A DNA stretch of 64,000 nt from an uncultured Acidimicrobiaceae bacterium (GTDB taxonomy: Bacteria; Actinomycetota; Acidimicrobiia; Acidimicrobiales; RAAP-2). The notes below the pieces were generated by a model that saw nothing but the letters and a program-made list of their open reading frames with translations, was not told the DNA's origin and did not search any database. Both the position numbers and the translations under genes were made by a program. This document shows, in pieces, positions 3,104 to 22,289 of the stretch (position 1 is the stretch's first letter; each line of letters starts with the position of its first letter). The DNA is taken from contig CAWECY010000004.1 of NCBI GenBank assembly GCA_963807775.1, positions 475,873 to 539,872 on the forward strand. The letters run 5' to 3'.

Positions 3104-3201
3104 TGTGTATCTCCTTGTTCGTGATCCCTCCCAGTGAGGAGATCCATCTCCATCGTCCACGAGCGAGGTCCCGCTGAGATGAGCGCAAAGGTCCTGTGGG
3201 C

Positions 3202-3216
3202 TAGGGAGAAAGGTCC
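3202..3216 (-). promoter_or_regulatory. Copy of the recurring 15-nt box (TAGGGAGAAAGGTCC on the + strand; 14/15 match to the other two copies)
   Basis: Direct sequence comparison with 7060-7074 and 16611-16625. It lies 98 nt upstream of the minus-strand start at 3103. A second AAGGTCC sits at 3188-3195. Confidence 0.45.
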
Positions 3217-3303
3217 CTTGGTCGGGCGCATCCAAATGGCGTTGGCGCCGAAAGGGGAGGATCCTCCGTAGTCGGGGCTATTCGCCCCGCACAGACTGGA
3301 CGC

Positions 3304-3648
3304 ATGAGCATGTACGTGGAGGTCCTTTCTGGGGCCATGGACCGATGGGACACGGAGCTGTCCGGCGATGCTCTCATCGACTACGCGCTCACCTGCCGAG
3401 CCGCGCTACCCGCTCGGGATTTAGGGGCCGGGGTCTGGTCGGAGGCTTCCTTGGTTGCCGAGGTCGCCTACGACCGAGCTCTCATAAGCCTGGCGGCCGA
3501 GCATGGCATCGACGTGGCTCCGAGGAACTTCGTGCACCCGAGGATCGAGCGGGACCGCCTCGAGCTCGAGTTGGCTCGCCGGGGCGTCTCTCTCGAAGTC
3601 CCGGTTCGCGACCCAACGACTCGGGGAACGCCTAGTCCTGGCTCTTGA
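3304..3648 (+). CDS. Hypothetical protein
   Basis: 114-aa ORF with reasonable composition. No motif recognised. Its 3' end overlaps the convergent response regulator by 17 nt. Confidence 0.45.
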   Translation: MSMYVEVLSGAMDRWDTELSGDALIDYALTCRAALPARDLGAGVWSEASLVAEVAYDRALISLAAEHGIDVAPRNFVHPRIERDRLELELARRGVSLEVPVRDPTTRGTPSPGS

Positions 3649-4270
3649 GCTTGGTGGCGTAGATGGCGGCCTCGGTGCGGCTCGTGACCTTGAGCTTGCG
3701 CAGCAGGCCGGTGATGTAGTTCTTCACCGTGTTCTCCGAGAGGAACATCGCCTCGGCTATCTGTTTGTTGGTCTTGCCTTCTGCGATGAGATCCAAGATG
3801 CGAGACTCTTGGGGCGAGAGGGACGCGATCGACGGATCAATCTGAGGCGGGTTGGCGATCCGCTCGACCACCCGGGCCACGGCCCTGGGATCCATGAGCG
3901 ATACCCCTGTCGCCACCTTCTTCACGTCCTCGACCAGGTCACGGGCCTTGATCTGCTTGAGGACGTAGCCCGCTGCCCCGGCCATCACGCTGGCGTACAT
4001 GGCTTCGTCGTCGGCGAAGCTGGTGAGCATCAGGCAGACCAAGTTGGGCATGGCGGAGCGCAGATCGCGGCACACCTCGATGCCGTCACCGTCTTCGAGA
4101 CGCACGTCGAGGATGGCGACGTCCGGCTTGGCCAAGGGCGCCCGGGTCAGCGCCTCGTCGCCGGTCGAAGCCTCGCCCACCACTTCGATTTCGCTGTCGC
4201 TCTCGAGCAGGCTCCGAATGCCCTCTCGGACCAGTTCGTGGTCGTCGAGCAGGAACACGCGGATGGCCAC
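3632..4270 (-). CDS. NarL/LuxR-family two-component response regulator (DosR/DevR-like)
   Basis: Receiver motifs LLDDHELV and DVAILDVRLEDGDG. C-terminal LuxR HTH LSPQESRILDLIAEGKTNKQIAEAMFLSENTVKNYITGLLRKLKV. GTG start. Confidence 0.9.
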   Translation of the reverse strand: MAIRVFLLDDHELVREGIRSLLESDSEIEVVGEASTGDEALTRAPLAKPDVAILDVRLEDGDGIEVCRDLRSAMPNLVCLMLTSFADDEAMYASVMAGAAGYVLKQIKARDLVEDVKKVATGVSLMDPRAVARVVERIANPPQIDPSIASLSPQESRILDLIAEGKTNKQIAEAMFLSENTVKNYITGLLRKLKVTSRTEAAIYATKLKSQD

Positions 4271-4338
4271 GGGACCATTGTGCCAGTACCGCCTGCGCTC
4301 CTGCGAAACTCCCGCGTACCGACAGTACGATCCGCCTC

Positions 4339-5466
4339 GTGCCCTACACGCGGGTCAACGACCCCGAGAAGCTGCGCCGGCTCATGGGAGCCGTGCTCAT
4401 GATCACGGCCGACGTCGAGCTGGCCGATCTGCTCCGTCACCTGGTGGAGGAGGCCAGGTCCCTGGTTGGCGCCCGCTACGCCGCACTCGGCGTGCTCAAC
4501 GAGACCCGCACCGGCCTCGAGCAGTTCATCACCGTTGGGCTCAGCGAGGCCGAGGAGGCCCAGATCGGCGATCGGCCTACTGGGCGCGGGGTCCTCGGCC
4601 TGCTCATCACGGAGCCGGCTCCCCTGCGGCTCTCCCACCTCGAGCAACACCCCGGCCGCTACGGATTTCCTCCGAACCACCCGCCGATGACCTCGTTCCT
4701 GGGGGTGCCGTTGCGAGTGCGCAACGACGTCTACGGCAACCTCTACCTGACGGACAAGGAGGACGCGACCGCGTTCACCGACGAGGACGAGGCATTGGCC
4801 GAAGCTCTCGCTTTAGCGGCCGGCATTGCCATTGAGAACACCAGGCTCCACGACAGGGTCCGCGTCATGAGCGTGCTCGACGACCGGGACCGGATCGCCC
4901 GTGACTTGCACGACCGGGTCATCCAGCGCATCTACGCCGTCGGCATGAGCCTCCAAGGCGCCACGAGAATGCCCGAGCGTGAGCAGGTCGTCGAGCGAGT
5001 ATCCCGGGCTATCGACGAGCTCGATGACACCATCACCCAGATCCGCTCGGCCATCTTCGAACTGGGGGACGCCGCCCTACCGGGCGGACTGCGCCAAGCC
5101 GTTCTGCACCTCTCAGAACAGTTGGCGGGAACCCTCGGTAGCCGTCCCGAGGTCCGGTTCGAAGGGGCCGTGGACAACGACGTGCCCCAACAGATCGGCG
5201 ACCATGTCCTGGCTGTGGTGCGAGAAGGCCTCACCAACGCCGGAAAGCACTCGGGAGCCACGCGCTTCGTGGTGACTATGACCGTGACTGACGATCTGAC
5301 CCTCCAGGTCGTAGACGACGGGACAGGCATCGAATTGCCCGTGGTCGAACCGGGACTCGGGTTGGTCAACATCCGTGAACGCGCCGAAAAACTCGGTGGG
5401 TCGTTCGAGATCCACCCGAGAGACGGAGGGGGCACCCGCCTGGTGTGGACCGTTCCGCTCCGGTGA
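4339..5466 (+). CDS. Soluble GAF-domain sensor histidine kinase (HisKA_3/HATPase; DosS/DosT-like with a single GAF)
   Basis: GAF-like N-terminus (GVLGLL...FLGVPLRVRNDVYGNLYLTDK), H-box RIARDLHDRVIQRIY, N-box GLTNAGKHS and G-box GLGLVNIRERAEKLGG. No TM helix. Divergent from the response regulator. Confidence 0.9.
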   Translation: MPYTRVNDPEKLRRLMGAVLMITADVELADLLRHLVEEARSLVGARYAALGVLNETRTGLEQFITVGLSEAEEAQIGDRPTGRGVLGLLITEPAPLRLSHLEQHPGRYGFPPNHPPMTSFLGVPLRVRNDVYGNLYLTDKEDATAFTDEDEALAEALALAAGIAIENTRLHDRVRVMSVLDDRDRIARDLHDRVIQRIYAVGMSLQGATRMPEREQVVERVSRAIDELDDTITQIRSAIFELGDAALPGGLRQAVLHLSEQLAGTLGSRPEVRFEGAVDNDVPQQIGDHVLAVVREGLTNAGKHSGATRFVVTMTVTDDLTLQVVDDGTGIELPVVEPGLGLVNIRERAEKLGGSFEIHPRDGGGTRLVWTVPLR

Positions 5467-5528
5467 CGACATGACGTCGCCCTCGTGTGCGTCAGTCGAA
5501 TCGTTCACACTGAACAGTCGGCACTCCT

Positions 5529-6935
5529 TCAGTATTCGCTCGGTGCCGGCCGCGAGGTCAGGCCACGGAACGCTTCGTGTATGCCGTCGCAGAAGGCGTC
5601 GATGTCGGGGCAGACGGTGGGATCGACGAGTACGCCCAGGTTGAGCTGGTCCAGATACGAGAGGACCGCGACGCCGAGTCCCTGGTTTCCCACGAGCGGC
5701 ACCAAGGGGTAGGCCTCCAGCATCTTTGCCCCGATCGCATAGAGAGGGACGCTTGGACCGGGCACGTTCGTCACGATCAGGTTGAAGAAGGGCTGATGCT
5801 GGACCAGCCACCCCAACGCGGCCAGTGCCGACGTCGGCAGCGGCTGGAGGGCACGGAGGGCGGCGTCGGCCACCAGCTCCTGGTGATGCTCCTTCTGCGA
5901 CGCCGTCTGTGAGGAGATGGTCGCCAGGGTGTGCTCGGGGTCGTCGGAACCAACCGGGAGTTTGACGAGCAAGCCCGAAACACGGTTGGCCATACCCCGG
6001 GCAGGTCCGGAGTCCAGGCCGACGGGGATCAGCGCGTTGACCTCTTCGTCGGCCCCTGCTGATCGACCCATCATTTTGTGCAGGCCCTGCGTCACGACGG
6101 TCAGAACGACGTCATTGACGGTGCCACCTCGGGCGTGAGCGATGGTGCGCGCATCCTCGAGTGGCAATCGAACGAAACGAATCTGGCGGTGAGGGCCAAT
6201 CTGATGATTCAGGGGCGACGGTGGAGCCAGGGGTCCGGCGCGGAGCACCTGTGCCGCCGCACCGAGTTCCGCCGTCCAGCCCCGGGCGCGTCGGAGCGGG
6301 TGCAGTGCCGTCCAGCCGGCCCACGCTCCCAACCGGACGCCGATCTCGCCCAGGCGCCAGAGATCCCGTGCGGCATCGACCACGAACGGCACCGGAGCCT
6401 GGGGTTGCCAGGGGGCAGCCGCCGGGCGGGTGGGGCACTCCGGCGACAGATCGAGCAGCACCATGGCGAGCTCGGCGGCGGCGATGCCGTCCGCCATCGA
6501 GTGATGCAGCCTCTCGATCAACGCGATCTGACCGCTCTCGAGCCCTTCAACGAAGGTCAGCTCCCACAACGGCCGGCCCTGGGTGAGCGGGGTGGAGACC
6601 ACCTCGGCACAGAGCTCAAGGAGGTCTGTGTCAGCGCCCGGTGCTGCCAACGGCCGCCGAGTGACGTGGTTGGCGATGTCGAAGGCCGGGTCGTCGCACC
6701 ACACGGGTGGCGCCTCGATCAACGTGCCCGGTCGGGCGATTTGCCGCAATTTTGGAACTAGCTCAAGTCGGGAGGAGATCAGTTGGCGGAGGTCCTCGAT
6801 GCGAAGGTCACCTCGCTCGTCGAGCAGAGGTCCTGCTTCGAAGAACGCGATCGACACCATGTGCATGGGGGTGCGATCGGACTCGACCTGAAGGAACATG
6901 GCATCGAGCGGCGACAGCCCCGAGGCGGGCCTCAC
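5529..6935 (-). CDS. Wax ester synthase/diacylglycerol acyltransferase (WS/DGAT, triacylglycerol synthase)
   Basis: N-terminus LSPLDAMFL and the catalytic HHSMADGIA (HHxxxDG) motif. The 468-aa length is typical. Confidence 0.9.
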   Translation of the reverse strand: MRPASGLSPLDAMFLQVESDRTPMHMVSIAFFEAGPLLDERGDLRIEDLRQLISSRLELVPKLRQIARPGTLIEAPPVWCDDPAFDIANHVTRRPLAAPGADTDLLELCAEVVSTPLTQGRPLWELTFVEGLESGQIALIERLHHSMADGIAAAELAMVLLDLSPECPTRPAAAPWQPQAPVPFVVDAARDLWRLGEIGVRLGAWAGWTALHPLRRARGWTAELGAAAQVLRAGPLAPPSPLNHQIGPHRQIRFVRLPLEDARTIAHARGGTVNDVVLTVVTQGLHKMMGRSAGADEEVNALIPVGLDSGPARGMANRVSGLLVKLPVGSDDPEHTLATISSQTASQKEHHQELVADAALRALQPLPTSALAALGWLVQHQPFFNLIVTNVPGPSVPLYAIGAKMLEAYPLVPLVGNQGLGVAVLSYLDQLNLGVLVDPTVCPDIDAFCDGIHEAFRGLTSRPAPSEY

Positions 6936-6986
6936 GGCGAGACTTCCCTGCGAGGAAGTCGGGTGCGGGGCAGGCGCTGTGTTCCC

Positions 6987-6999
6987 AGGTCACGGACCA
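6987..6999. promoter_or_regulatory. Imperfect inverted repeat AGGTCACGGACCA in the tgs / HTH-PPOX divergent intergenic region
   Basis: GGTC..GACC arms, resembling GGTCCTAAGGACC at 16621-16633. It lies 52 nt upstream of the WS/DGAT start. Confidence 0.3.
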
Positions 7000-7059
7000 T
7001 GAACAGAGTGTGGCGGCATTCGGCTGGAGGCCGCTACCGACTTAGCTCCCTGGCCGGCG

Positions 7060-7074
7060 GGACCTTCCTCCCTA
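7060..7074 (+). promoter_or_regulatory. Copy of the recurring 15-nt box (GGACCTTCCTCCCTA)
   Basis: Exact reverse complement of 16611-16625. It lies 34 nt upstream of the ATG at 7109. It is preceded by a G, giving GGGACC, which is a DosR-type half-site. Confidence 0.5.
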
Positions 7075-7108
7075 GCCGCGGCCGATACCCGAAGAGCACA
7101 CTCGGAAC

Positions 7109-7798
7109 ATGGACACCGCCATCGGAAAAGAGTCTGGAGACCTCGCTCGACGTATCACGCAACGTCGCCAGGAGCTTGGACTGACAGCAGAGGACCTGGC
7201 GCGCCGGGCGGGGTTGGCCCCCGAATTTCTCGACTACTTCGAGCAGCACGCCGACGGGCAGCTGAGCAGTGGGACGCTTACCAGGATCGCTCGCGCCCTC
7301 CAGACGGTCCCGGCCGACCTTCTGGGTGGTGACAGAAGCCGCCCATTGGGCAACGCGGGCGCGCTGCCTGGGGCCATTCTCGAGCCACTGACGCCAGCGC
7401 AGTGTCGGAAGCACCTCGAAGGCGGGGGCGTGGGAAGGGTCATCTTTTGCGCATCCCGGGGTCCGGTGGCGCTTCCCGTGAATTATCGGTTCTCAAAGAG
7501 CGAAGTGCTGTTCAATACGACGATGAAGACGGCGACGGAGCTCGAGTCCCAGGGCACCGTCGGTTTTGAGATCGATCGGATCGACGACGTGTTCAGCGAG
7601 GGCTGGAGCGTCATCGTGACCGGATCTGCTCGCCTGGTGGACCACCCGGACGAGCTGGTCGCGCATGCCGCACACCGGATCGAGCCGTGGGCGGGGGGAG
7701 CTCGGGGAGCGGTCGTGGCGATCACGGCCGACGAGGTCACGGGACGAGTCATCGTCCACGACGGGACAGGTGATCCGACACCCGGACCGAGCCGGTAG
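7109..7798 (+). CDS. XRE-type HTH domain fused to a pyridoxamine 5'-phosphate oxidase-fold (PPOX/F420-type) domain
   Basis: N-terminus LARRITQRRQELGLTAEDLARRAG. C-terminal half GRVIFCASRGPVALPVNYRF...GWSVIVTGSARLV is typical of the PPOX split-barrel fold. Confidence 0.8.
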   Translation: MDTAIGKESGDLARRITQRRQELGLTAEDLARRAGLAPEFLDYFEQHADGQLSSGTLTRIARALQTVPADLLGGDRSRPLGNAGALPGAILEPLTPAQCRKHLEGGGVGRVIFCASRGPVALPVNYRFSKSEVLFNTTMKTATELESQGTVGFEIDRIDDVFSEGWSVIVTGSARLVDHPDELVAHAAHRIEPWAGGARGAVVAITADEVTGRVIVHDGTGDPTPGPSR

Positions 7799-7912
7799 GC
7801 CACCGGCCCCTCGATCACGACAAGGGCTTACGATCAAAGGTGCAGAGAACGATGAGCCAGGGCCCAGCGAGCCGGACCGAAGGCCGAGAACTCCCCGTCG
7901 GATATCCCTTAG

Positions 7913-8841
7913 AACGTGTTTGGTAACCCGTGTCACGGCGGAGCCCAGGGGCGCCGACCTGGTGGGCGTGCAAGGCGATTGAGCATCAGTCCGATCATCG
8001 CCCACTTGACGAACGCCTCGTGCGTCTCGGGCAGCCGCTCGTAGTCGCGCACCAGTCGGCGCCAGCGCATGAGCCAGGCCAACGTGCGCTCGACCACCCA
8101 GCGCCGAGGCAGGACGGCAAAGCCGCGCTGGTCCTTGGGCTTGGAGACGATCTCGACGGTCATCTTCCAGTAGCGCCGGGCCCGCACGACGAGTCGACCG
8201 GCATAGCCACCGTCGGCGAAGACGTGGCGCAGCCGGGGATACCAGCCATGGGCCAGCTTTAACGCGTCGACTCCTCCGTCGCGGTCTTGCACCGAGGCCG
8301 CAGTCACCATCACGACGAGCAACAACCCGAGCGTGTCGGTCACGATATGGCGCTTTCTTCCCTGCACTCGCTTCCCGGCGTCATAACCGCGAGTGTCCTT
8401 TCCGACGGTGTCGGCCCCACGCAGGGACTGCGAATCGACGATCCCCGCACTCGGTTCGGCCTTCCTCTTGGTGCCGTCGGGCTTCTCGGTCCTCTTGCGC
8501 AGCTCCTCGCGCAAGGTGTCGTGGATGAGATCGAGCGTCCCGTCGTCGCGCCAGTCGACGAAGTAGCCGTAGACGGTGCGCCAATGCGGGAGATCCTTGG
8601 GCAGCATGCGCCAAGCACACCCGGCGCGCGTCAGGTACAAGATGGCATTGACGATCTCGCGCTTGGGATACAACGGAGGCCGTCCGCCGGGAGCCACCGG
8701 CACCGTGTCGGGCAACATAGGCTCCACCAACGCCCACTGACGATCGGTCAGATCGGTCGGATATCTGCGGCCCGGCGCCACGCACACCAGTGCAGCGCAA
8801 TCGAGAGTAAATCGCGAGCACCGCGCGCTACCAAACGCGCT
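7913..8841 (-). mobile_element. IS5-family insertion sequence (about 0.93 kb, single transposase ORF)
   Basis: Transposase ORF plus imperfect terminal inverted repeats. The core is GTGTTTGGTAAC at 7916-7927 versus GCTACCAAACGC at 8827-8838 (10/12 as reverse complement). Exact ends and target duplication were not resolved. Confidence 0.75.
7933..8787 (-). CDS. IS5-family DDE transposase
   Basis: RRYPTDLTDRQWALVEPMLP, NAILYLTRAGCAWRMLPKDLP, IVDSQS, HIVTDTLGLLL, FADGGY and VVERTLAWL are hallmark IS5 (IS427/ISL2-like) blocks. GTG start at 8787 or 8781 is inferred. The stop lies inside the left IR. Confidence 0.85.
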   Translation of the reverse strand: MCVAPGRRYPTDLTDRQWALVEPMLPDTVPVAPGGRPPLYPKREIVNAILYLTRAGCAWRMLPKDLPHWRTVYGYFVDWRDDGTLDLIHDTLREELRKRTEKPDGTKRKAEPSAGIVDSQSLRGADTVGKDTRGYDAGKRVQGRKRHIVTDTLGLLLVVMVTAASVQDRDGGVDALKLAHGWYPRLRHVFADGGYAGRLVVRARRYWKMTVEIVSKPKDQRGFAVLPRRWVVERTLAWLMRWRRLVRDYERLPETHEAFVKWAMIGLMLNRLARPPGRRPWAPP

Positions 8842-8971
8842 GGTCACGCGCGATTTTGAAAACTTCTCCTCACAAGTGCTATCGACGACAGCGAGCTACG
8901 TCTTCAGCTGCTCCCATGTCGGCACCTGGTTTCCAAACACGTACTTAGAACTGGAGTTCGACGCAGTATCC

Positions 8972-9541
8972 ATGGAGCAGTTCCGTTTTCTCGTACGTCC
9001 CATTCGTCCGGACGACGTCGGCGCACTGGTCCAGTTCCACGAGCACCTGTCCGACCGCTCGTGCTATCTCAGGTTCTTCTCCCTCCATCGGCATCTCTCT
9101 CCGATAGAAGTCGAGCGGTTCACGCAGGTGGACTATCGGGACCGCCTCGCGCTGGTGGCCGAGCACGACGGCCGGCTCATCGCCGTCGGCCGCTACGACC
9201 GCCGCCCGGAGACGACCGAGGCCGACGTCGCCTTCGTCGTGGCCGACGAATGTCAACATCATGGCATCGGGTCATTGCTGCTGGACGAGTTGGCTGATGC
9301 GGCACGTGACCGCGGCATCACCACCTTCGTGGCCGACACGCTCCAAGAGAACCTCACGATGCTCCAAGTGTTCTCCCATTCGGGGTTCCCGGTTAGCCGG
9401 CACTACGAATACGGCACCGCCTCCTTGCGGTTTCCCATCACGCTTACTCCGTCCTACGAGAAATGCCTCGCGCGACGCCGAACTGGCTGGCAGATCGCTG
9501 CAAGCAATGCCTTGTTGCTCGAGGCTCACGGCGACGGTTGA
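8972..9541 (+). CDS. GNAT-family N-acetyltransferase (Pat-type protein acetyltransferase-like domain)
   Basis: Internal ATG at 8972. LRFFSLHRHLSPIEVERFTQVDYRDRLALVAE...VVADECQHHGIGSLLLDEL is typical of the GNAT acetyl-CoA site. Confidence 0.8.
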   Translation: MEQFRFLVRPIRPDDVGALVQFHEHLSDRSCYLRFFSLHRHLSPIEVERFTQVDYRDRLALVAEHDGRLIAVGRYDRRPETTEADVAFVVADECQHHGIGSLLLDELADAARDRGITTFVADTLQENLTMLQVFSHSGFPVSRHYEYGTASLRFPITLTPSYEKCLARRRTGWQIAASNALLLEAHGDG

Positions 9542-9684
9542 GGCACCCAGGAATCGGGATACCTGTCGGTGGAGTCTCAGGGCGAACATTGCCACTTGGC
9601 GTGCAGATCGGCCCGCTTCGCACGCTTTGTGGCCTGGCGTCAGGCTCTTTAGCGCGATCGAGCACCAGGCCGTCGGCTGTCGTC

Positions 9685-9722
9685 GGGACCACCTTCCCTG
9701 GCCCTTGGGACCTTTTGGCCTA
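9685..9722 (+). promoter_or_regulatory. Two GGGACC boxes 22 nt apart upstream of the alcohol dehydrogenase gene
   Basis: GGGACCACCTTCCCTGG (9685-9701) and GGGACCTTTTGGCCTA (9707-9722). The latter matches the 16-nt extended box GGGACCTTCCTCCCTA at 12/16 positions. Confidence 0.3.
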
Positions 9723-9800
9723 CCCGGACTCAGGGCAGACGTGGACGATGGCTGGGTAAGGGCAAGTCCAAGATCATGAGCACCGAGCGGAGGTAGGACG

Positions 9801-10841
9801 ATGAAGGCACTCGTATACGAGGGACCTGGCCGGAAGAGTTGGAGCGAGATCGCGGACCCGAAGATCCAGCACGACGGCGACGTCATCGTGCGGGTCGACG
9901 CGACGACGATCTGTGGAACGGACCTGCACATCTTGAAAGGGGACGTTCCCGAGACGACCCCCGGCCGAGTCCTCGGACACGAAGCCGTGGGCACCATTGT
10001 CGAGGTCGGCTCCGGCGTGAAGACGCGCCAAGTCGGCCAGCGTGTGCTGGTCTCGTGCATCTCGGCCTGCGGCTTCTGCCGTTTCTGTCGGGAGGGCCAT
10101 TACGGGCAGTGCCTTGGCGGCGGCGGATGGATTCTTGGTCACCTCATCGATGGGACCCAGGCGGAGCTGGTACGGGTGCCCTTCGCTGACACGTCGACCT
10201 ATCTCGTCCCCGCTGGGGTGGCTGACGAGGACATCTTGATGCTGGCTGACATCCTCCCGACGTCCTACGAGGTCGGTGTGCTGAACGGCCGAGTCCAGCC
10301 GGGCGACACCGTTGCCGTCGTGGGCGCTGGGCCAATCGGGCTCTCCGCCATCTTGGGAGCGCAGCTCTTCTCACCGAGCCACATTGTGGCCATCGACCCG
10401 GCTGACACCCGATTGGAAGCCGCCAAGCGCTTCGGGGCCGACGCGACCGTCAACAATGGAAGCGATGACGCCTTATCTGTGGTCCAGGGCCTGACGGACG
10501 GCCTCGGCGCCGATGTCGCCATCGAGGCCGTGGGCGTGCCCGAGAGCTTCGAGTTGTGCACCACTCTTGTCCGGCCCGGAGGACGGGTCGCCAACATCGG
10601 CGTGCACGGAAAGCCGGCCACACTGCACCTCGAATCGCTATGGATCCGCGATGTCACCATGACCACGGGTTTGGTCGACACCTTTTCGACACCCACCTTG
10701 CTCCGGCTGATGACAGCAGGTCAGCTCTACGGTAGCCAGTTCGTCACCCACCACTTTGAGCTGGGCCAGATGCTCGCTGCGTATGACGCCTTCAGGCGCG
10801 CGTCAGAGACGGGAGCGTTGAAGGTCGTGATCAGTAGGTAG
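9801..10841 (+). CDS. Zinc-dependent medium-chain alcohol dehydrogenase
   Basis: GHEAVGTIVEVG zinc motif, structural-zinc Cys cluster CISACGFCRFC and Rossmann VAVVGAGPIGL. RBS GGAGG lies 7 nt upstream. Confidence 0.9.
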   Translation: MKALVYEGPGRKSWSEIADPKIQHDGDVIVRVDATTICGTDLHILKGDVPETTPGRVLGHEAVGTIVEVGSGVKTRQVGQRVLVSCISACGFCRFCREGHYGQCLGGGGWILGHLIDGTQAELVRVPFADTSTYLVPAGVADEDILMLADILPTSYEVGVLNGRVQPGDTVAVVGAGPIGLSAILGAQLFSPSHIVAIDPADTRLEAAKRFGADATVNNGSDDALSVVQGLTDGLGADVAIEAVGVPESFELCTTLVRPGGRVANIGVHGKPATLHLESLWIRDVTMTTGLVDTFSTPTLLRLMTAGQLYGSQFVTHHFELGQMLAAYDAFRRASETGALKVVISR

Positions 10842-10883
10842 AGCCAGGTCGGCGACGGGGTCGACGCCGCCGTCACGCGAGCC

Positions 10884-11979
10884 CTACCCGAGGAGCGAGC
10901 GAACCTCCGATGCGATCTGGAGATCCTCTCTGGCCCGGATCACAAAGATCCTGACCCGCGAATGCGAGCCCGTGATCTCCGTATCCGGTGATGCGGAGGG
11001 AATTCGCCTCCTGGTCAAGCGAGACGCCGAGAAAGCCCATTTTTGACAGAGTGTCGGCGCGCACGAGCGCGGCGTTCTCCCCCGCACCTCCGGTGAAGGT
11101 GACGGCATCGAGACCCCCCATCGCGCTGGCCATTGCCGCAATGGCTGCGCGCAGCCTGTGCACGTAGACGTCGTGGGCCAATTCGGCCGCGTCGTCACCT
11201 TTGACGACCAGCGCCTCGATCTCGGCCAGGTCGGACGACCCGGCCAGTGCGTACAAGCCTGATTCGTGTTCGAGCGTGTGGCCGATATCGGAGACCGAGA
11301 TCCCTCGCTCCTGCGCAAGCCAGAGGATCAGACCGGGGTCTACCGTGCCCGAGCGGGTGGCCATGACCAGCCCCTCCAGGGGGGTGAAGCCCATCGTCGT
11401 GTCGATCGAGCGGCCCTCGACGACGGCGGCGAGGGATGCCCCCGCGCCTAGGTGGCAGGTGACCAGACGGACAGCCGTTCCCGAGTGCCCCATGAGCTCG
11501 ATCGTGCGTCGCCAGGCGTAGGCATGGCTCAGGCCGTGGAAGCCAAAGCGACGCACACCCCAACGATCCCGCCATTCCCGTGGCACGGCGTACGTGGCCG
11601 CCGCCTCGGGCAGGTCGGCGTGAAAGGCCGTGTCGAAGCACCCCACCGCCGGCACGTCGCTCAAGACAGCGCTGACGATCTCGACCGCCTGCAGGCAAGA
11701 CCTCTGGTGCAGGGGCGCCAGCGGGACCAGCTCGTGCAGAGCGTCCAAGGTGGCAGGGTCAAGCAACGTCGGACCGGCGAAGTGAGTCCCGCCATGCACG
11801 ATGCGGTGCCCGACCGCATCGATGGGGCAGGGAGACTCCGCAACGAATCGCCGCAGCGTGGCCGGATCGAACGTTCCTCCGACGGCCCGCAAACTTTCAG
11901 CTCGTAACAGGTCGTCGTCGGAGTTGAGAACGCTCAGTTTGAGGCTGGAGGACCCCGCGTTGACAACCAGCACGTTCAC
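10884..11979 (-). CDS. ackA: Acetate kinase, with an apparent 1-nt frameshift about 35 codons before the stop
   Basis: The N-terminus [14 protein letters not shown] and the body are in the frame of ORF 10873..12948. The canonical C-terminus [33 protein letters not shown] is in the frame of ORF 10884..11318. The switch lies at about 10992-11002. The GTG start overlaps the xfp stop (GTGA). Confidence 0.85.
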
Positions 11980-14399
11980 CGCGCGTAGTCGCTCCACACC
12001 CAGTCGGTGATCTCGGGTGGATCCTCGCCGTGCTGGCGGGTATAGGCGCGGGCTCTGAGCCGCGCGTCCTGCATCTCTTGGCGCAGGCCCGCCGCCCGCT
12101 CCCCGAGGCCGGGAACACGGTCGATGACGTCCATGACCAAGTGAAAGCGGTCGAGGTCGTTGAGCATGGTCATGTCGAAGGGGGTCGTGGTGGTCCCCTC
12201 CTCCCGGTAGCCGCGCACGTGCAGATTGGCGTGGTTGGTGCGGCGGTAGGTCAGGCGGTGGATCAGCCACGGATAGCCGTGATAGGCGAAGATGATCGGA
12301 CGGTCGGTCGTAAAGAGCTCGTCGAACTCGCGGTCGGGGAGCCCGTGGGGGTGCTGGCTCTGGTCGCACAGACGCATGAGGTCGACCACGTTGACGACCC
12401 TTACGCGCAGTGACGGGAGGTGCCGCCGGAGCATCTGGGCCGCCGCCACTGTCTCGAGCGTGGGAACGTCCCCGGCGCAGGCCAGGACCACGTCGGGGAC
12501 CACCTCGGCGTCGTTGCTGGCCCACTCGAAGATGCCCAGACCCCGAGTGCAGTGGGCCACCGCGTCCTCCATCGAGAGGTACGTGAGGGCCGGCTGCTTG
12601 CCGACGACGATGAGATTGATGTAGTCCCGGCTCCTGAGGCAATGGTTGGCGACTGAGAGCAGGGTGTTGGCGTCCGGGGGCAGATAGATGCGCACCCGAT
12701 CCGAATTCTTGTTCACCAGGTGGTCGATGAACCCGGTGTCCTGGTGCGAAAACCCGTTGTGGTCCTGACGCCAGACGTGGCTCGTGAGGAGGTAGTTCAG
12801 CGACGCGATGGGGCGACGCCACGGGATGCCCTGGCAAGTCTTGAGCCACTTGGCGTGCTGGTTCAGCATGGAGTCGACGATCGGGACGAACGCCTCGTAG
12901 CAGTTGAAGAGACCATGGCGGCCGGTGAGGAGATAGCCCTCCAACCACCCCTCACAGAGGTGCTCGCTCAGGACCTCCATGACCCGTCCTTGGCGAGCGA
13001 GGTGCTCGTCGGCGGGGTGAATCTCGGCCTGCCAGGCGCGCTCGGTGGCTTCGAACACCGTTCCGAGCCGGTTCGAGAGCGTTTCGTCCGGTCCGACCAG
13101 GCGGAACGTGGTGGGGTTCGCCTTGATGACGTCCCGGAGCAGTCCTCCGAGCACCCGGGTCGGTTCCACCCACGCCGTGCCCGGACGGTTGACGGGCACC
13201 GCATAGTCGGTGAAGTCCGGCACGGTGAGGTCCTTGAGGAGGAGCCCGCCGTTGGCGTGCGGGTTGGCCCCCATGCGGCGCGAGCCAGTCGGGGCCAGCG
13301 CGGCCAGCTCATGGCGGAGGCGCCCGGCCTCGTCGAAGAGCTCCTCGGGTCGGTAGCTGCGCATCCAGGCTTCGAGAATGGCGAGGTGTTCGGGATTCGT
13401 GCGGACGTCACCGACGGGCACCTGATGAGCACGGAACGTGCCCTCGACCGGCAGGCCGTCCACGATCCTGGGACAGGTCCAGCCCTTCGGCGTGCGGAGC
13501 ACGATCATGGGCCAGGCAGGACGATCACTCGTGGTCCGGCTGCGCGCCGCGGTCTGGATGTCCGCGATCTCGTCGAGGGCTCGATCGAGCGCGGCGGCCA
13601 GCTGCTCGTGCACGTCGAAGGGCTCATCACCGGCCACGAAGATCGGGCTGTGGCCGTAACCCTCGAGCAGCCACCGCAACTCGTCGTCGCCGATCCGAGC
13701 CAGGATCGTCGGGTTGGCGATCTTGTACCCGTTGAGATGGAGGATGGGCAGTACCGCACCGTCACCGACGGGATCGAGGAACTTGTTGGAGTGCCAGGAC
13801 CCCGCCAGCGGGGCCGTTTCGGCCTCGCCGTCCCCGATGACGCAGGCCACGATGAGGTCCGGATTGTCCAAGGCTGCCCCGTAGGCATGCACCAGCGAGT
13901 ACCCGAGTTCTCCTCCCTCGTGGATGGATCCTGGGGTCCCCGGAGAGACATGGCTGGGGATCCCGCCCGGGAACGAGAATTGGCGGAAGAGATGCCCGAG
14001 GCCCTCCTCGTCCTGCGTGATGTGGGGGTAGAACTCGCTGTAGGTGCCTTCGAGGTACGTGTTGGCGACGATCCCCGGCCCTCCGTGCCCAGGTCCGGTG
14101 ACGTAGATCATGTCGAGGTCCCGGGCCACGATGACGCGATTGAGGTGGGCGTAGACCAAGTTGAGCCCCGGCGTCGTGCCGAAGTGGCCCATCAAACGTG
14201 GCTTGGTGTGCTCGGCCCGCAGTGGTTCTCTCAGCAGCGGGTTGTCGAGGAGATAGATCTGACCGACCGAGCCGTAATTGGCGGCCCGCCAATAGGCGTC
14301 GATGGCCCTCAGGTCCTCTGATGCCAACACGGTCCTGCTGTCGTCCCCACCTCGGCGCATCGATCGCCCTTCGACCAGCGATGAGCGGGGTGCCGTCAT
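11976..14399 (-). CDS. xfp: Xylulose-5-phosphate/fructose-6-phosphate phosphoketolase
   Basis: 807 aa. Carries [42 protein letters not shown] and the whole-length architecture typical of XFP. Confidence 0.95.
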
Positions 14400-14818
14400 C
14401 GGGGTCCCGGGAGGACTTTATGGGCGACGGGGGTGGCTACGGCTGCGAACTCCCCCACCAGCCACACGAGCAGGTCGTCGACGGTGATGATTCCTGCCAC
14501 TTCGGAGTCCTCGAGCACCGGAAGCCGGCGCACACCGGCCCGGCGGACGACGGCGAACGCAGCAAGGAGATCCTCAGAACCTTGGATGGTGATGGGAGTT
14601 CCCGTCATGACCCCCTCGACGGGCTCATCTGGTGCGAGCCCCTGAGCGGTGCCGCGCACCGCGAGGTCCCGATCCGTCACGATGCCGACCAGCTCGTCCC
14701 CGCTCACCACGAGGAGCGCGCCGACCACATGGTCCCGCATGAGGCTCGCCGCTTCTTTGAGCGTGCACTGCGGAGGCACGGTAACGGGCGCCTTGCGCAG
14801 ACACTCCCTTACCAACAT
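14396..14818 (-). CDS. CBS-domain pair protein (Hrp1/Rv2626c-like)
   Basis: 140 aa with two CBS repeats ([19 protein letters not shown]). ATGA overlap with the xfp start. Confidence 0.85.
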
Positions 14819-14864
14819 GGCTGCACCTCCTGGCCGAAGATTGCCCGCTGCACGTTTTGCAGCC

Positions 14865-15521
14865 TCATGGCGCGTCGGCGTTTGTCAGCTGCGTCGCGAT
14901 CTCCTGGAGCACACCGCGACGCTCGAGCAGTGTCCTCCGGAACATCGCGTTATCCGTGTCGGCGATCTCCGAGCTGAGGTCGCCGAGCACCGAATGCAAG
15001 ACGGAGGCAAGTTCCTCGACGCCAGCCCGGCCGAGGAGCACGGCCTTCAGGTGCCCGTCCCCTTGTTCGGTCGACCTGGCAGCCAGATCACGTCGCTCGC
15101 CCCGGAGATCGGGTTCGACCGCCCGCCCTGTCACCTTGAACGGGGAGATCTCGAACACGCGGACCCCCGGTACGGTGACGATGGGGGCTGGGAGGTTGCT
15201 CCCGAGTCGCGCCACGTCTTCGTACGGCAGTATGCGGGCGACTCCTTCGACCACGACGCTCCAGCCGGAGTGCCGCGTTGGCGCCACCTCGTCCGCCTCG
15301 AACGTGACCGCCTTGCCGTCCAGACTGTAGGCGGCGAATCCCTTTCCGAGCCGGATGACGATCTTGTCTTCGATGAGCGTGAAATTCACCGGTATCACGT
15401 AGGGCGATCGAGCCCCGTTGATGGCAATTCGTCCGGTGCCGGTCGTCGTCGCTGCGCCCTCCAAGTGGCGCAGGCACGCGTCTTCGCTCAGCACCACCGA
15501 GCCACGTCGGTCGAGCATCAT
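14865..15521 (-). CDS. Pyridoxamine 5'-phosphate oxidase-fold family protein
   Basis: Internal start MMLDRRGSVVLSEDACLRHL...PYVIPVNFTLIEDKIVIRL...GWSVVVEGVARIL. ATGA overlap with the upstream gene's stop. Confidence 0.75.
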   Translation of the reverse strand: MMLDRRGSVVLSEDACLRHLEGAATTTGTGRIAINGARSPYVIPVNFTLIEDKIVIRLGKGFAAYSLDGKAVTFEADEVAPTRHSGWSVVVEGVARILPYEDVARLGSNLPAPIVTVPGVRVFEISPFKVTGRAVEPDLRGERRDLAARSTEQGDGHLKAVLLGRAGVEELASVLHSVLGDLSSEIADTDNAMFRRTLLERRGVLQEIATQLTNADAP

Positions 15522-16096
15522 TGTGCCCCTCTTTCGGTATCGCCATGGTTGACGGTTCTGCGGACCACGCCGACCGCTCTGTGAAGAACGCTCTCGGGCG
15601 TGAGCTGCTCCAGGGTGAAGGGTTCGGTGCGCCGGCTCGCTCCGAGCTTGCGCCACATGTCACCCTCCCAGACCGTGATACGCCGACCTGCCACGTCAAC
15701 CTCGAGCTGGATGTGCGGATTGCGGTCGACACGAGGGGGCACTGCGACAGGACCCTCGAGTGACATCCACAAGGTCACCCGCTGACCGTGACGAGACGCC
15801 GCCGTCTGCTCCTCGACGAGACCTCCACCGCCGTCGTCGTTCAGTCGCTCGGCGACATTCCAGAAGGTGGGTTTCACAACGTGTTCGAACCGACAGGCTG
15901 CGGCGTGGGTGAAGCGTTCACGCTCCAGGAGTACAGCCCGCATGTGGGCCGCTTGCTCCTGCTCGCGACGGGCGTAGGTCGCCAAGAGATCGTCGACGAG
16001 GACGAGGCTTCCGTCGTCGAGCGTCCCGCCGACCGTGGCCAGACGCAGCGGCGGCGTCGTGCACAGGTGCTGGGAGGCGTCGCTTAGCGAGGACAT
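15518..16096 (-). CDS. Hypothetical protein (in the usp operon)
   Basis: Start MSSLSDASQH lies at 16096, 8 nt after the usp stop. Coding-like composition. No family recognised. Confidence 0.55.
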   Translation of the reverse strand: MSSLSDASQHLCTTPPLRLATVGGTLDDGSLVLVDDLLATYARREQEQAAHMRAVLLERERFTHAAACRFEHVVKPTFWNVAERLNDDGGGGLVEEQTAASRHGQRVTLWMSLEGPVAVPPRVDRNPHIQLEVDVAGRRITVWEGDMWRKLGASRRTEPFTLEQLTPESVLHRAVGVVRRTVNHGDTERGAQ

Positions 16097-16103
16097 GATC
16101 AAG

Positions 16104-16547
16104 TCAACGCACCACGATCGTGGTGCAAGTCGCGTAATGCACGACATGCTCGGAGACGGAACCCAAGAGGAGGTCGGTGAGCTCACGGTGGCCACGAGTG
16201 CCGACCACGAGCGCGGTGGCTCCCTTGCTCAGAGCAACGAGTGCCGGCCCTGGGAAGTCCAAGACCGCTTCGCCCTTGACGACGACTGTCGGCTCGAGCT
16301 CCTCGGCCCGGCGGAGAGCATCCGAAACGATGGCCTCCGCCGATTCATGGAAGACGCCCATTCGCACGACGAGAGCCCCTACCGCGGGCATCTCCTGGTA
16401 CACACTCACCACGTAGAGCAGGGCGTCCCATCGGGCGGCCTCCTTCAAGGCGAACTCGAGGGCACGGGTTGCGCAGTCCGAGCCATCGACGCCCACGACA
16501 ATTCGGGCTTCGTTCACGGACTCGTTAGTTGGGTCATTTGGTCTCAC
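16104..16547 (-). CDS. Universal stress protein (UspA family)
   Basis: IVVGVDGSDCATRALEFA...LVVGTRGHRELTDLLLGSVSEHVVHYATCTTIVV. Confidence 0.9.
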   Translation of the reverse strand: MRPNDPTNESVNEARIVVGVDGSDCATRALEFALKEAARWDALLYVVSVYQEMPAVGALVVRMGVFHESAEAIVSDALRRAEELEPTVVVKGEAVLDFPGPALVALSKGATALVVGTRGHRELTDLLLGSVSEHVVHYATCTTIVVR

Positions 16548-16610
16548 GGCCGCCTCCTCGGGTATTGGTCGGGACTCCTGTCATTGTCCTGGTACGCCGC
16601 CCGGTCCGCG

Positions 16611-16633
16611 TAGGGAGGAAGGTCCTAAGGACC
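16611..16633 (-). promoter_or_regulatory. 15-nt box (TAGGGAGGAAGGTCC on +) overlapping the perfect palindrome GGTCCTAAGGACC
   Basis: The box at 16611-16625 is identical to the reverse complement of 7060-7074. The palindrome spans 16621-16633. It lies 63 nt upstream of the usp start. Isolated GGGACT (16571-16576) and AGTCCC (16643-16648) half-sites are nearby. Confidence 0.5.
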
Positions 16634-16945
16634 AGGTACGGCAGTCCCTGATTTGACGGGGAAATGAGCCTCGGGCCTGGTCCTCTAGACAGAAGTGACT
16701 CTGGGCTCGGGCCTCACCGCTGGTCGTGGCACCGAGCACGCCGCCAGGTCATGACGGCCACTGGGAATGGCGCGGGCCGCCACCACTTGGGGACGCTGTG
16801 GCCAGGTGGCGGGGGGCGGGGGACAGTGAAGGGACCTTGGTCCCATCGCCCGATGGCGATTGTCCCTACTCGTGCCGACCTGGGATCCGTAGCCTGCGAC
16901 ACATCCACCGTGGGCCCCGTCGCGCCATCGCCCTGCGAACCTGCT

Positions 16946-18139
16946 TCAGCCCGGCTGGGACCCCACGATGGAGACGAAGGACAGCATCTCGCCGGGATAG
17001 CCACCCAAGTTGTGCACCATGGCCAGGCCGCGGTCGACCGTGGCGATCTGGCGCTCCTCGGGCGCCTCGCGGCGCAGCTGGAGCCAGCACTCGAAGAACA
17101 TGCGCAGGCCCGACGCGCCGACGGGGTGTCCGAAGCTCTTCAGACCGCCGTCGGGGTTGACCGGCAGGTCGCCGTTCAGCGCGAACGTGCCCGCCAGGAC
17201 CTCCTTCCACGCCGTGCCCCGGGGTGCGAAGCCGAGATCCTCCATGAGCACCAGCTCGGTCGGCGTGAAGCAGTCGTGCACCTCGGCCATGGCCAGTTGG
17301 TGTCGCGGGTCGGTGATGCCGGCCTGGGCGTAGGCATCGGTCGCCGCCGCCTCGCACTCGGGGAAGTAGGTGTAGTCGTAGCCCGGGTCGATCAGGCCCG
17401 ACCCGCTCCCCGTGGCGAAGGACAGCGCCTTGATATAGACGGGCTTGTCCGTGTAATTGAGCGCGTCCTCGGCCCGCACCACGATGGCCGCCGCCGCGCC
17501 GTCGGCCACGCCGGCGCAGTCGAAGACGCCCAGCGTGCCGGCCAGGCGGGGTGAGGAGAGCACCGCCTCCTTGGTGATCTCGCGCCGGAACTGCGCCCGG
17601 GGGTTACGCGCCCCGTTGAAGTGGTTCTTGACGGCGATGGAGGCCAGCACCTCGCCCATGGTCTCGTCGTCCACCCCGTACTTCTGTCCATAGGCGGGGG
17701 CGACCATGGAGAACATGGCGGCGGCCGTCAGCGTGCGCGCCGTCCCGTCGCCCGGAGGGTTGTTGGCGTTGAGCCCCTGGAACCCGCTGTCCTTCACCTT
17801 CTCGGCGCCGACTGCCATGGCCATGTCGTAGGCCCCCGACGCCACGGCGTAGACCGCGGCGCGGAGTGCCTCCGAGCCCGTGGTGCAGTAGTTCTCCACC
17901 CGTGTCACCGGCTTGTTGTGCAGCTGCAGCGGCCGGGCCAGCGTGATGCCGCTCATTCCGCTCTGCGCCGTACCGAACCAGTAGGCGTCGACGTCCTCCT
18001 TGGTGACGCCGGCCGAGGCGAAGGCCTCGGTGCTGGCGTCGACGATGAGGTCGTCCAGCCCCTTGTCCCAGTGTTCGGCGAAGGGCGTGCAGCCCATGCC
18101 GACGATGGCCACCCGGTCCGCAATGCCGTGCGAGCCCAT
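16946..18139 (-). CDS. SCP-x/archaeal-type thiolase (acetyl-CoA C-acyltransferase family)
   Basis: VAIVGMGCTPF, VENYCTTGSEAL (nucleophile Cys context), and C-terminal GLKSFGHPVGASG and HNLGG. Confidence 0.9.
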   Translation of the reverse strand: MGSHGIADRVAIVGMGCTPFAEHWDKGLDDLIVDASTEAFASAGVTKEDVDAYWFGTAQSGMSGITLARPLQLHNKPVTRVENYCTTGSEALRAAVYAVASGAYDMAMAVGAEKVKDSGFQGLNANNPPGDGTARTLTAAAMFSMVAPAYGQKYGVDDETMGEVLASIAVKNHFNGARNPRAQFRREITKEAVLSSPRLAGTLGVFDCAGVADGAAAAIVVRAEDALNYTDKPVYIKALSFATGSGSGLIDPGYDYTYFPECEAAATDAYAQAGITDPRHQLAMAEVHDCFTPTELVLMEDLGFAPRGTAWKEVLAGTFALNGDLPVNPDGGLKSFGHPVGASGLRMFFECWLQLRREAPEERQIATVDRGLAMVHNLGGYPGEMLSFVSIVGSQPG

Positions 18140-19602: not shown

Positions 19603-19702
19603 GGCGGACGAGCCTACCGGGTGCCCGGAGGCGTTCCTGATGGGTCATCGGGGCGGCGGTCCGTCCGAGCGGCGGGGGTCCCGATCGGACAAGACTGTTT
19701 CA

Positions 19703-21156: not shown

Positions 21157-22289
21157 CGCCAAGAGTGGGGGACACACGCGCCTGGGAGGAGGCCGGCCTC
21201 TACGACCCGTCCGCTCCGGGTGCCGACGAGCGCCGGGCCTTGCTCGAGTACCTGACCGGACGGGGCGCCACGCTCGAACAGATGGTGAAGGGGCATGCGC
21301 TCGGCTCCCTGCCGGGCGTGGCGGGCGATCTCGTCCTTGGTCAGGAGACCGCCGTGATGCCCGTGTCGGAGATCGCCGCCCGCAGTGGCGTGGCGGAGTC
21401 ACGCGTCCTGCGCGCCCTCCTGGCCGCCGGTGTGCCGGCCGCATCGGACACGGACGTCTCCACCAATCTCGTCAGCCTCATGGATGCGTTCGAGCAAGGC
21501 TCCGCACTGATGGGGGACGAGCCCGTCCTCGCATTCACCCGGGTCATGGGCGCGGCGGCCACCAACATCGCCGAGGCCGCCATCGCGCTCTTCTTCGCGG
21601 AGATGGGACCGGGCACCCTACGCGAAGGACCCGACGAGCTGGCCCGGGCCCGTCAGGCCGAGGCGGCGACGCTCGCCTTCATGGCGGTGCCCGACGTCGT
21701 GGCCCGGATGATCGTGGAGGCGTTCGTCCGCGCCGAACGCCGAGCCGAGCTGGCCCGGCACGCACAGGCCGGCCTCGGTGCGGACGGTCCCCCCGACGGG
21801 CCGACCGAGGTCATCGCGCTGGGCTTCGTCGATCTGGTCGGGTCGACCACCTGGAGCCAGACGCTGAATCTGCGCGATCAGAACCTGGCGCTCACCCGTT
21901 TCGAGTCGTTCGCGTGGTCGAGCGCCGTCCTGGCCGGCGGGCGCGTCATCAAGACGATCGGCGACGAAGTCTTTTTCGCGGCGCCCACCGCCGAAGCAGC
22001 ATGCGAGATCGCCCTGGCCGTCTGCCGCGCCACGGAGGATGACCACGTCTTACCGCCGGCCCGGGGTGCCGTGGGCGTCGGGACGGTGGCGCCCCGGGAA
22101 GGCGACTACTTCGGTCCACTGGTCAACCTGCTGGCTCGACTGGTGAAGGCCGGCCCTCCGGGAGGGGTCGTCGTCACCGAGGCGGCAGCGGCGGAACTCC
22201 CCTCGGAGACCTGGTCATTGAGCCCGTTGGAGCCGCTCGAGCTGCGGGGGTTCGACGGCGCAATACCGGCGTTTCACGTGGAGCATTAA
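21153..22289 (+). CDS. Class III adenylate cyclase with an Rv1264-type N-terminal regulatory domain
   Basis: ERRALLEYLTGRGATLEQMV and the helical N-domain resemble M. tuberculosis Rv1264. Catalytic blocks are IALGFVDLVGSTTW, IKTIGDEVFFA and GDYFGPLVNLLARL. GTG 21153 overlaps the corrected stop of the upstream cyclase (GTGA). Confidence 0.8.
   Translation: MTPRVGDTRAWEEAGLYDPSAPGADERRALLEYLTGRGATLEQMVKGHALGSLPGVAGDLVLGQETAVMPVSEIAARSGVAESRVLRALLAAGVPAASDTDVSTNLVSLMDAFEQGSALMGDEPVLAFTRVMGAAATNIAEAAIALFFAEMGPGTLREGPDELARARQAEAATLAFMAVPDVVARMIVEAFVRAERRAELARHAQAGLGADGPPDGPTEVIALGFVDLVGSTTWSQTLNLRDQNLALTRFESFAWSSAVLAGGRVIKTIGDEVFFAAPTAEAACEIALAVCRATEDDHVLPPARGAVGVGTVAPREGDYFGPLVNLLARLVKAGPPGGVVVTEAAAAELPSETWSLSPLEPLELRGFDGAIPAFHVEH

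Follow-up and report, generated by a model that had tools for sequence, protein, structure and literature searches.

In Mycobacterium tuberculosis, every promoter under the control of the response regulator DevR (DosR) carries at least two tandem Dev boxes, and helical phasing between them is required (Chauhan et al. 2011, PMC3177182). At tgs1-Rv3131, boxes at -42.5 and -63.5 drive two divergent genes (PMC3177182). The ortholog of DosR in Streptomyces coelicolor, OsdR, recognises a related 16-nt palindromic box and targets usp, adh and PPOX genes (Urem et al. 2016, PMC5069765). A full-text search of the accessible literature combining DosR with Acidimicrobi* found no paper. Here we describe a stretch of 64,000 nucleotides (nt; hereafter the window) from an uncultured Acidimicrobiaceae bacterium (assembly GCA_963807775.1, contig CAWECY010000004.1, positions 475,873 to 539,872 of the forward strand), in which short, nearly identical boxes precede genes of a stress-gene neighbourhood on both sides of a divergent pair of response regulator and histidine kinase genes. 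We put the probability that these boxes are the operator sites of a DosRS/DevRS-type two-component system at roughly 0.85. An initial annotation of the same DNA had already suggested DosR-like operators for the local regulator, a prediction now backed by the homology of regulator and kinase, the core of the box, its enrichment in intergenic DNA and its conservation.

The likeness to the M. tuberculosis system concerns the proteins, the operator and the genes alike. Both have a NarL-family regulator, a kinase with a GAF domain of the heme GAF-A type (here predicted to bind heme) and boxes with a GGGAC-N4-GTCCC core; the boxes are tandem and phased in both (-42.5/-63.5 in M. tuberculosis, predicted -43.5/-65.5 here) and a single box pair serves, or here would serve, tgs together with a divergent neighbour gene. 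The regulon content is also similar, with usp (Rv2623-like), CBS (Rv2626c-like, hrp1), a triacylglycerol synthase of the tgs1-type WS/DGAT class and PPOX proteins. However, box starts are 22 nt apart here and 21 nt apart in M. tuberculosis, the half-site is GGGACC instead of GGGACT, and the box is directional by virtue of its TT centre and of a strong TA on the promoter side. The regulator has N or H in place of K179 and S in place of R196, the kinase (375 aa) has a single GAF domain, and the genes of the pair are divergent, predicted to be leaderless and without a conserved box. Moreover, the regulon adds phosphoketolase and acetate kinase, and the host belongs to the class Acidimicrobiia. 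With the OsdR-OsdK system the locus shares the clustering of stress genes (usp, adh, PPOX-family, nitroreductase) around the two-component genes. In contrast, the OsdR consensus, AGGGCCGATCGGCCCT, has a GGGCC half-site and a GATC centre and a box lies upstream of OsdR's own gene, while a fixed tandem or -10 spacing does not figure in the available passages of that paper (PMC5069765).

The starting point is a repeated 15-mer, GGACCTTCCTCCCTA. It occurs exactly at 7060-7074 on the plus strand and at 16611-16625 on the minus strand, and with 14 of 15 matching positions at 3202-3216 on the minus strand. All three copies are oriented toward their downstream gene, 34, 63 and 98 nt from the start codons ATG 7109, GTG 16547 and ATG 3103, respectively, in agreement with the initial annotation. 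At up to two mismatches these are three matches where 0.08 were expected, a number reached in none of 100 shuffles. The annotation had taken the GGGAC(C/T) in this sequence for a half-site of the DosR box; instead, the 15-mer corresponds to a full 14-nt box followed by a promoter-side TA, since together with the base preceding it it forms the unit [G/A]GGACCTT[C/T]CTCCC, which has the 5-4-5 layout of a complete DosR box (GGGAC-N4-GTCCC class). The copies do not have the same role: those at 7060 and 16611 are proximal boxes, and the one at 3202 occupies the distal position in its promoter. The core GGGACNNNNGTCCC, allowing at most one mismatch, is found seven times in the 64 kb, and six of the seven matches are intergenic, between 3.2 and 16.9 kb.

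Could the 15-mers be pieces of a dispersed repeat, similar to a miniature inverted-repeat transposable element or a repetitive extragenic palindrome, or else coincide by chance in GC-rich DNA without any relation to regulation? Even the non-palindromic CC at positions 9-10 is common to the three copies, which speaks for such an origin. However, this explanation is already contradicted and deserves hardly any credence. The similarity between copies reaches at most 19 nt at 95 % identity or 26 nt at 81 %, the flanks beyond are unrelated, and no longer repeat encloses the 15-mers; with so short a common stretch the copies do not qualify as parts of a mobile or dispersed element. Chance would provide 0.08 matches, and it would not account for the fixed distances to -10 hexamers and partner boxes nor for the conservation upstream of orthologs described below. 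The shared variant is, in addition, close to a directional consensus obtained from other genomes. Near-identity and common orientation of the copies thus follow from a motif that is directional (GGGACCTTCGTCCC-TA) and rich in information, with all three copies lying near its consensus.

Related loci were collected by a genome scan with the regulator as query, which yielded 80 loci; a further one, L081, was the single locus returned by a metagenome scan with the universal stress protein (USP) as query, bringing the total to 81. The eight closest relatives (L001 to L008) are metagenome-assembled genomes (MAGs) of Acidimicrobiaceae/Acidimicrobiales with the same divergent regulator-kinase pair and a regulator 78-87 % identical to that of the window. 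Training on all 80 loci gave a matrix too diluted by chance matches in GC-rich DNA, and the scoring matrix was therefore built from the eight closest loci only (34 sites, window left out; consensus cTAGGGACCwwGGTCCCTAg). Sites of the window scoring at least 12 bits are called strong. With this relatives-only matrix the window has ten strong sites, compared with an expectation of 1.6 and a null maximum of 6; intergenic DNA makes up 17.9 % of the window and contains six of the ten (Poisson P ~6e-7 versus the null rate). Within the window, strong sites are thus over-represented in intergenic DNA, as proposed for promoter elements by the initial annotation. Several elements had not been listed there: the partner boxes 7037-7050, 16635-16648 and 3182-3195, the box 3255-3268 and the palindrome 16831-16844 (Table 1).

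The boxes do not stand alone but form part of a predicted promoter design of strict geometry. Of 54 strong sites from the window and L001-L008, 33 % are accompanied by a second box (6 bits or more) at an offset of exactly 22 nt, compared with 0-9 % at other offsets between 10 and 45 nt. Likewise, a NANNNT hexamer follows the box core at exactly 24 nt in 22 % of site-directions; for other gaps the value is about 3 %. The design of a proximal box, a gap of 23-24 nt and a NANNNT -10 element is seen in six predicted promoters of the window. The partner at 22 nt is recognisable in five of them, the small open reading frame (ORF) promoter being the one without (-16.9 bits). The two sites reported earlier upstream of the alcohol dehydrogenase gene (adh) proved genuine and form such a tandem pair, with starts exactly 22 nt apart. 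Assuming that transcription starts 7 nt after the -10 hexamer, the proximal boxes are predicted to be centred at -43.5 or -42.5 and the distal ones at about -65.5.

These positions suggest a mechanism that would closely follow the M. tuberculosis paradigm. By homology, the heme-GAF kinase (4339-5466) would sense O2, NO, CO or the redox state and phosphorylate the DevR-like regulator (3632-4270), dimers of which would bind 14-nt GGGAC-N4-GTCCC boxes in tandem pairs whose starts, being 22 nt apart, are separated by about two helical turns. The proximal box, located 23-24 nt before a weak -10 element (C/G-A-N-N-N-T), would abut or overlap the -35 region; from a centre near -43.5 the activator could recruit RNA polymerase in a class-II-type manner, with the distal box near -65.5 presumably bound cooperatively. 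NarL/LuxR class-II activator promoters offer a mechanistic analogy, with a dimer site at about -41.5 to -43.5 adjoining the -35 region and a weak core promoter, bearing in mind that the position here is predicted. At least six promoters between 3.1 and 16.7 kb would be under such control: those of the presumed usp-PPOX-CBS-xfp-ackA operon, of tgs and of the helix-turn-helix (HTH)-PPOX gene, which share one box pair, of adh, of the membrane protein gene and of the small ORF.

Conservation upstream of orthologs, which the initial annotation had proposed as a check, was followed in the 81 related loci, and the boxes are indeed kept. Within the 250 nt upstream of homologs of the target genes, a box scoring 12 bits or more is found for 5 of 6 HTH-PPOX (83 %), 5 of 7 small-ORF (71 %), 9 of 13 membrane-protein (69 %) and 3 of 6 tgs homologs (50 %), as well as for 43 % of adh and 26 % of usp homologs; the corresponding values are 3 % for kinase genes, 0 % for the operon-internal xfp and 2.4 % for random windows. 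The box pair of the membrane-protein promoter is retained upstream of the ortholog in six relatives (L001, L002, L003, L005, L006, L008) in spite of diverged flanks, including the GGACCTTTGCGC half of the weak 3182-3195 box, which is conserved in relatives. At the position of the small-ORF box, L001, L002 and L006 have stronger boxes. The 7037-7050 box is identical in L001 (CCGACTTAGCTCCC), and the spacing of box, gap and hexamer recurs at HTH-PPOX homologs in L001, L005 (twice) and L008. The adh boxes are conserved with a 24-nt gap in L001 and L003. The layout of the usp promoter is met again in L003 and L008, and its distal box has counterparts in L003 and L081. On the latter, a metagenome contig, the exact 15-mer precedes a usp gene whose product is 65 % identical; its distal partner lies 22 nt farther upstream, and GACGAT follows after a gap of 23 nt. 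In L003, the exact 15-mer serves as proximal box before a permease gene.

The presumed reader of the boxes is encoded among them. The best match of the regulator in the PDB is M. tuberculosis DevR (3C3W, E=1.3e-65), ahead of the next family, VraR (7e-44), and also well ahead of NarL; ungapped identity to M. tuberculosis DevR is 52 %. In the alignment to DevR, D54 and T82 are kept. The roles of DosR residues in DNA reading, DNA-backbone contacts and dimerisation have been listed in a 2026 paper on the transcription activation complex (PMC13486717), and of these Q153, N167, K168, T180, K182, N183, Y184, R197, T198 and T205 are retained. The position of K179 is occupied by N or H throughout L001-L008, while more distant relatives keep K (AEKTVKNY). 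The boxes of the clade with K179N/H retain the GGGAC core but favour GGGACC and TTCCTCCC variants. In the kinase, the GAF domain matches the heme GAF-A domain of DosT/DevS (2VZW, 2.8e-42) and keeps the proximal-His (HPPM) and distal-Tyr (LYLTDK) motifs, so that heme binding is predicted. No DosR-specific NCBIfam or Pfam model scored above its cutoff among the window proteins searched.

A different factor might nevertheless read the boxes, either the XRE-HTH-PPOX protein as an autoregulator or a paralogous LuxR-family regulator encoded elsewhere. One copy does sit in the promoter of the HTH-PPOX gene itself, and relatives can have more than one DosR-like regulator per genome, as L003 and L040, which lie on one contig, illustrate. 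We consider this quite unlikely, because the core of the motif is the GGGAC/GTCCC of DosR and both K182 and N183 are preserved in the local regulator. In L002 and L006 the membrane-protein boxes travel with the regulator-kinase pair although no HTH-PPOX gene is present within 10 kb. Furthermore, a paralog with an identical recognition helix would leave the reading as a DosR-type regulon intact. Given the paralogs, the boxes are assigned to the local regulator on the grounds of adjacency and co-conservation.

The two-component genes themselves are a special case. The initial annotation had placed a box directly upstream of the histidine kinase gene, at 4271-4286, but this site abuts the start codon of the regulator, not that of the kinase. 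As a conserved box it was rejected after alignment with the eight closest relatives, in all of which the GGGAC half is absent (8/8) and only the CCATTGTGCCAG part is preserved; the 4271-4284 site thus probably does not belong to the conserved sites of the regulon. The complement of CCATTGTGCCAG, TGgCACAAT, is located 6-7 nt before the GTG of the regulator gene and reads as an extended -10 element, implying a leaderless promoter of the regulator that is independent of the boxes. At the kinase gene, TACGAT lies about 7 nt ahead of the GTG. L001-L008 retain both elements, and both genes look leaderless, with box-independent promoters. As no conserved box accompanies the regulator or kinase gene, there is no evident autoregulation; about 22 % of the more distant regulator genes do have an upstream box.

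The best-scoring site of the whole window is a perfect palindrome, GGGACCTTGGTCCC, about 285 nt upstream of usp. It was rejected as a proximal box, no -10 hexamer being present in either direction. As a distal box it fits on the plus strand only, followed by the weak box 16853-16866, a TA, a gap of 23 nt and TAGCCT at 16890-16895. The promoter predicted in this way (16831-16895) would point, in antisense direction, into the 3' end of a thiolase gene (16946-18139, minus strand), and its target is uncertain. The thiolase-usp junction was found in none of the related loci fetched (no thiolase match).

Such sites could also be taken to mean that DosR-type boxes act here mainly as repressor operators or roadblocks and not as class-II activator sites: the 4271 site overlaps the -10 and start region of the regulator gene, and the 16831 palindrome, when regarded as a proximal box, has no obvious promoter. 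We hold this to be very unlikely. The fixed gap of 23-24 nt would put the boxes upstream of the -35 region and not over the -10 element or the transcription start, and the -10 hexamers start in most cases with C or G (C 0.65) instead of the canonical T, which would fit dependence on an activator. Finally, the M. tuberculosis homolog activates from the same positions.

A directional logo provides a closer look at the box. It was derived from 60 boxes of 31 relatives' loci, the window being excluded, which were oriented only by the side bearing a -10 element at a 24-nt gap. The oriented logo is directional, reading GGGAC-[C/G]-T-T-[C/G]-G-T-C-C-C-T-A. In its centre T prevails at positions 7 and 8 (0.63 and 0.77), C is preferred at position 9 and the constraint on position 10 is loose (G 0.65, C 0.22). 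The TA on the promoter side is pronounced (T 0.75, A 0.53) and its distal mirror weak, while the -10 element reads C(0.65)-A-N-N-N-T and the predicted +1 has an excess of A. The 15-mer of the window equals this directional consensus save for C at position 10. One may speculate that the box is in fact a directional composite of activator site and promoter element, marked by the TT centre, the preference for C9, the relaxed position 10 and a strongly conserved TA at about -36/-35 without distal mirror, and that it goes along with the K179N/H exchange and a minimal single-GAF heme kinase; we regard this proposal as tentative and rather doubtful. If true, the promoter-side half-site and TA would be read jointly by the regulator and sigma region 4, and the regulon would wire hypoxia sensing to an ATP route via phosphoketolase and acetate kinase. 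The regulon might then also drive the antisense promoter 16831-16895 against the thiolase operon.

Several observations weigh against a DosRS-type regulon and have to be set beside the evidence in its favour. Of the ten strong window sites, four (15190, 55792, 58415 and 63163) are in coding sequence, which is roughly the chance level, and several of the proximal boxes are weak, at 3.0-9.8 bits. The transcription starts, and with them the positions of the boxes, are predictions from -10-like hexamers only. On the protein side, the base-reading K179 of helix alpha-9 is N in the regulator of the window and R196 of DosR is S, and the kinase has one GAF domain versus two in DosS and DosT. Unlike the autoregulated devRS genes of M. 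tuberculosis, the two-component genes have no conserved box. The paralogous DosR-like regulators in relatives, with L003 and L040 on one contig, count here as well.

Table 1. Boxes, predicted promoters and genes of the box-containing region (window coordinates; scores in bits from the relatives-only matrix; a dot marks a site to which no strand is assigned)
Feature	Position	Strand	Remarks
Distal box, membrane-protein promoter, GGGACCTTTCTCCC	3204-3217	-	19.4 bits; holds the 14/15 copy 3202-3216
Weak proximal box, membrane-protein promoter, AGGACCTTTGCGCT	3182-3195	-	3.0 bits; starts 22 nt after the distal box
Proximal box, divergent small-ORF promoter, GGGAGGATCCTCCG followed by TA	3255-3268	+	9.5 bits
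Box-like site, GGGACCATTGTGCC	4271-4284	.	13.8 bits; GGGAC half absent in L001-L008
Box common to two divergent promoters (proximal for tgs, distal for HTH-PPOX)	7037-7050	.	9.8 bits
Proximal HTH-PPOX / distal tgs box, GGGACCTTCCTCCC	7059-7072	+	16.1 bits; core of the copy 7060-7074
Tandem adh boxes, distal and proximal	9685-9698, 9707-9720	+	15.4 and 7.2 bits
Proximal usp-operon box, AGGACCTTCCTCCC	16613-16626	-	17.1 bits; core of the copy 16611-16625
Distal usp-operon box, GGGACTGCCGTACC	16635-16648	-	9.6 bits; starts 22 nt upstream of the proximal box
Perfect palindrome GGGACCTTGGTCCC and weak box	16831-16844, 16853-16866	+	20.7 and 5.6 bits; 22 nt apart
Membrane-protein promoter	proximal 3182 (weak), distal 3204, -10 3157-3152	-	predicted -10 GACGAT; 24-nt gap; predicted start near 3145
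Small-ORF promoter	proximal 3255, -10 3292-3297	+	no recognisable distal box; -10 CAGACT; 23-nt gap; predicted start = ATG 3304
tgs promoter	proximal 7037, distal 7059, -10 7012-7007	-	-10 CACACT; 24-nt gap; HTH-PPOX box pair read on the other strand
HTH-PPOX promoter	proximal 7059, distal 7037, -10 7097-7102	+	-10 CACACT; 24-nt gap; predicted start = ATG 7109, leaderless
adh promoter	proximal 9707, distal 9685, -10 9744-9749	+	-10 GACGAT; 23-nt gap
usp-operon promoter	proximal 16613, distal 16635, -10 16588-16583	-	-10 GACAAT; 24-nt gap
Two-transmembrane (two-TM) membrane protein, 204 aa	2489-3103	-	predicted target; no Pfam or NCBIfam family
Conserved small ORF, 114 aa	3304-3648	+	predicted target, probably leaderless; no Pfam or NCBIfam family
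Response regulator, REC + LuxR/GerE HTH, DevR/DosR-like	3632-4270	-	presumed reader of the boxes; Pfam
Sensor histidine kinase, GAF + HisKA_3 + HATPase	4339-5466	+	divergent from the regulator; Pfam
WS/DGAT triacylglycerol synthase (tgs1-type)	5529-6935	-	predicted target; Pfam
XRE-type HTH fused to PPOX-family domain	7109-7798	+	predicted target; Pfam
IS5-type transposase	7933-8847	-	
GNAT acetyltransferase	from 8876	+	
Zinc alcohol dehydrogenase (adh)	9801-10841	+	predicted target; Pfam
usp, unknown ORF, PPOX, CBS, phosphoketolase (xfp), acetate kinase	16547 to ~10873	-	presumed target operon; Pfam

Genes in the window were called by G+C content at third codon positions (GC3) and Pfam. The topology of the two-TM membrane protein, as we presume, recalls that of M. 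tuberculosis Rv1733c. Among the products of the presumed minus-strand usp operon, USP has Rv2623 of M. tuberculosis as its closest relative and the CBS protein matches Rv2626c, both of them members of the DosR regulon in that species. The ORF at 15518-16195 belongs to no NCBIfam or Pfam family; from the common strand and the short or overlapping junctions we infer co-transcription from usp to ackA. A box-like sequence of 12.8 bits, GGGAGGTTGCTCCC, is found at 15190-15203 within the PPOX coding region of this operon and could be due to chance or represent an internal site ahead of CBS-xfp. The 5' untranslated region of the membrane-protein gene contains an inverted repeat, GGATCTCCTCACTGGGAGGGATC (3112-3137, minus strand), just upstream of the AAGGAG Shine-Dalgarno sequence. 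It is also present in L001, L002, L003, L005 and L008, and a CCTC stretch in it pairs with a Shine-Dalgarno-like GGAGG; RNAalifold gave only five invariant pairs and no covariation, and no Rfam family matches the repeat. Rfam likewise gave no match over 1-20 kb of the window at E up to 0.1.

Gene order is largely shared with L001 (xfp-adh-GNAT-HTHPPOX-tgs-kinase-regulator-membrane protein), but that locus lacks the insertion sequence (IS) seen in the window. This IS5/IS4-family element (7908-8948) lies between the HTH-PPOX and GNAT genes and is bounded by 21-nt terminal inverted repeats at 7908-7928 and 8928-8948; its absence from the syntenic L001 points to a recent insertion. The mechanically called start of the GNAT gene, 8876, falls inside the element, and the real one is probably near 8969. 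Just past the lipid-metabolism genes, the ORF 19589-22042 combines a DUF1707 (SHOCT-like) domain, a LiaF-like C-terminal part and an adenylate/guanylate cyclase domain. Between 40000 and 64000, GC content falls from 0.63-0.73 to 0.56-0.62 and GC3 down to about 0.6-0.7, and this part may be a horizontally acquired island.

Taken as operators of a DosRS-type system, the boxes most likely represent a solid but expected extension of the known DosR/DevR system to a new bacterial class, and nothing here overturns current understanding. The dormancy circuit is thereby extended from Mycobacterium and Streptomyces to uncultured Acidimicrobiaceae of soil and bog. The type of sensor, the operator core, the tandem phased boxes, the place of these boxes with respect to the promoter and a large share of the genes have been carried over, which suggests that this promoter design is older than the divergence of the actinobacterial classes concerned. 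For structure-function work on the tuberculosis proteins, the naturally occurring K179N/H exchange and the kinase with its single GAF domain provide points of comparison, and the regulon model, consisting of the matrix and the spacing rules, can be used to annotate hypoxia responses in MAGs. As for the organisms themselves, they may meet oxygen limitation, an inducing signal deduced from homology, by means of triacylglycerol storage, USPs, alcohol dehydrogenase and substrate-level phosphorylation through phosphoketolase and acetate kinase.

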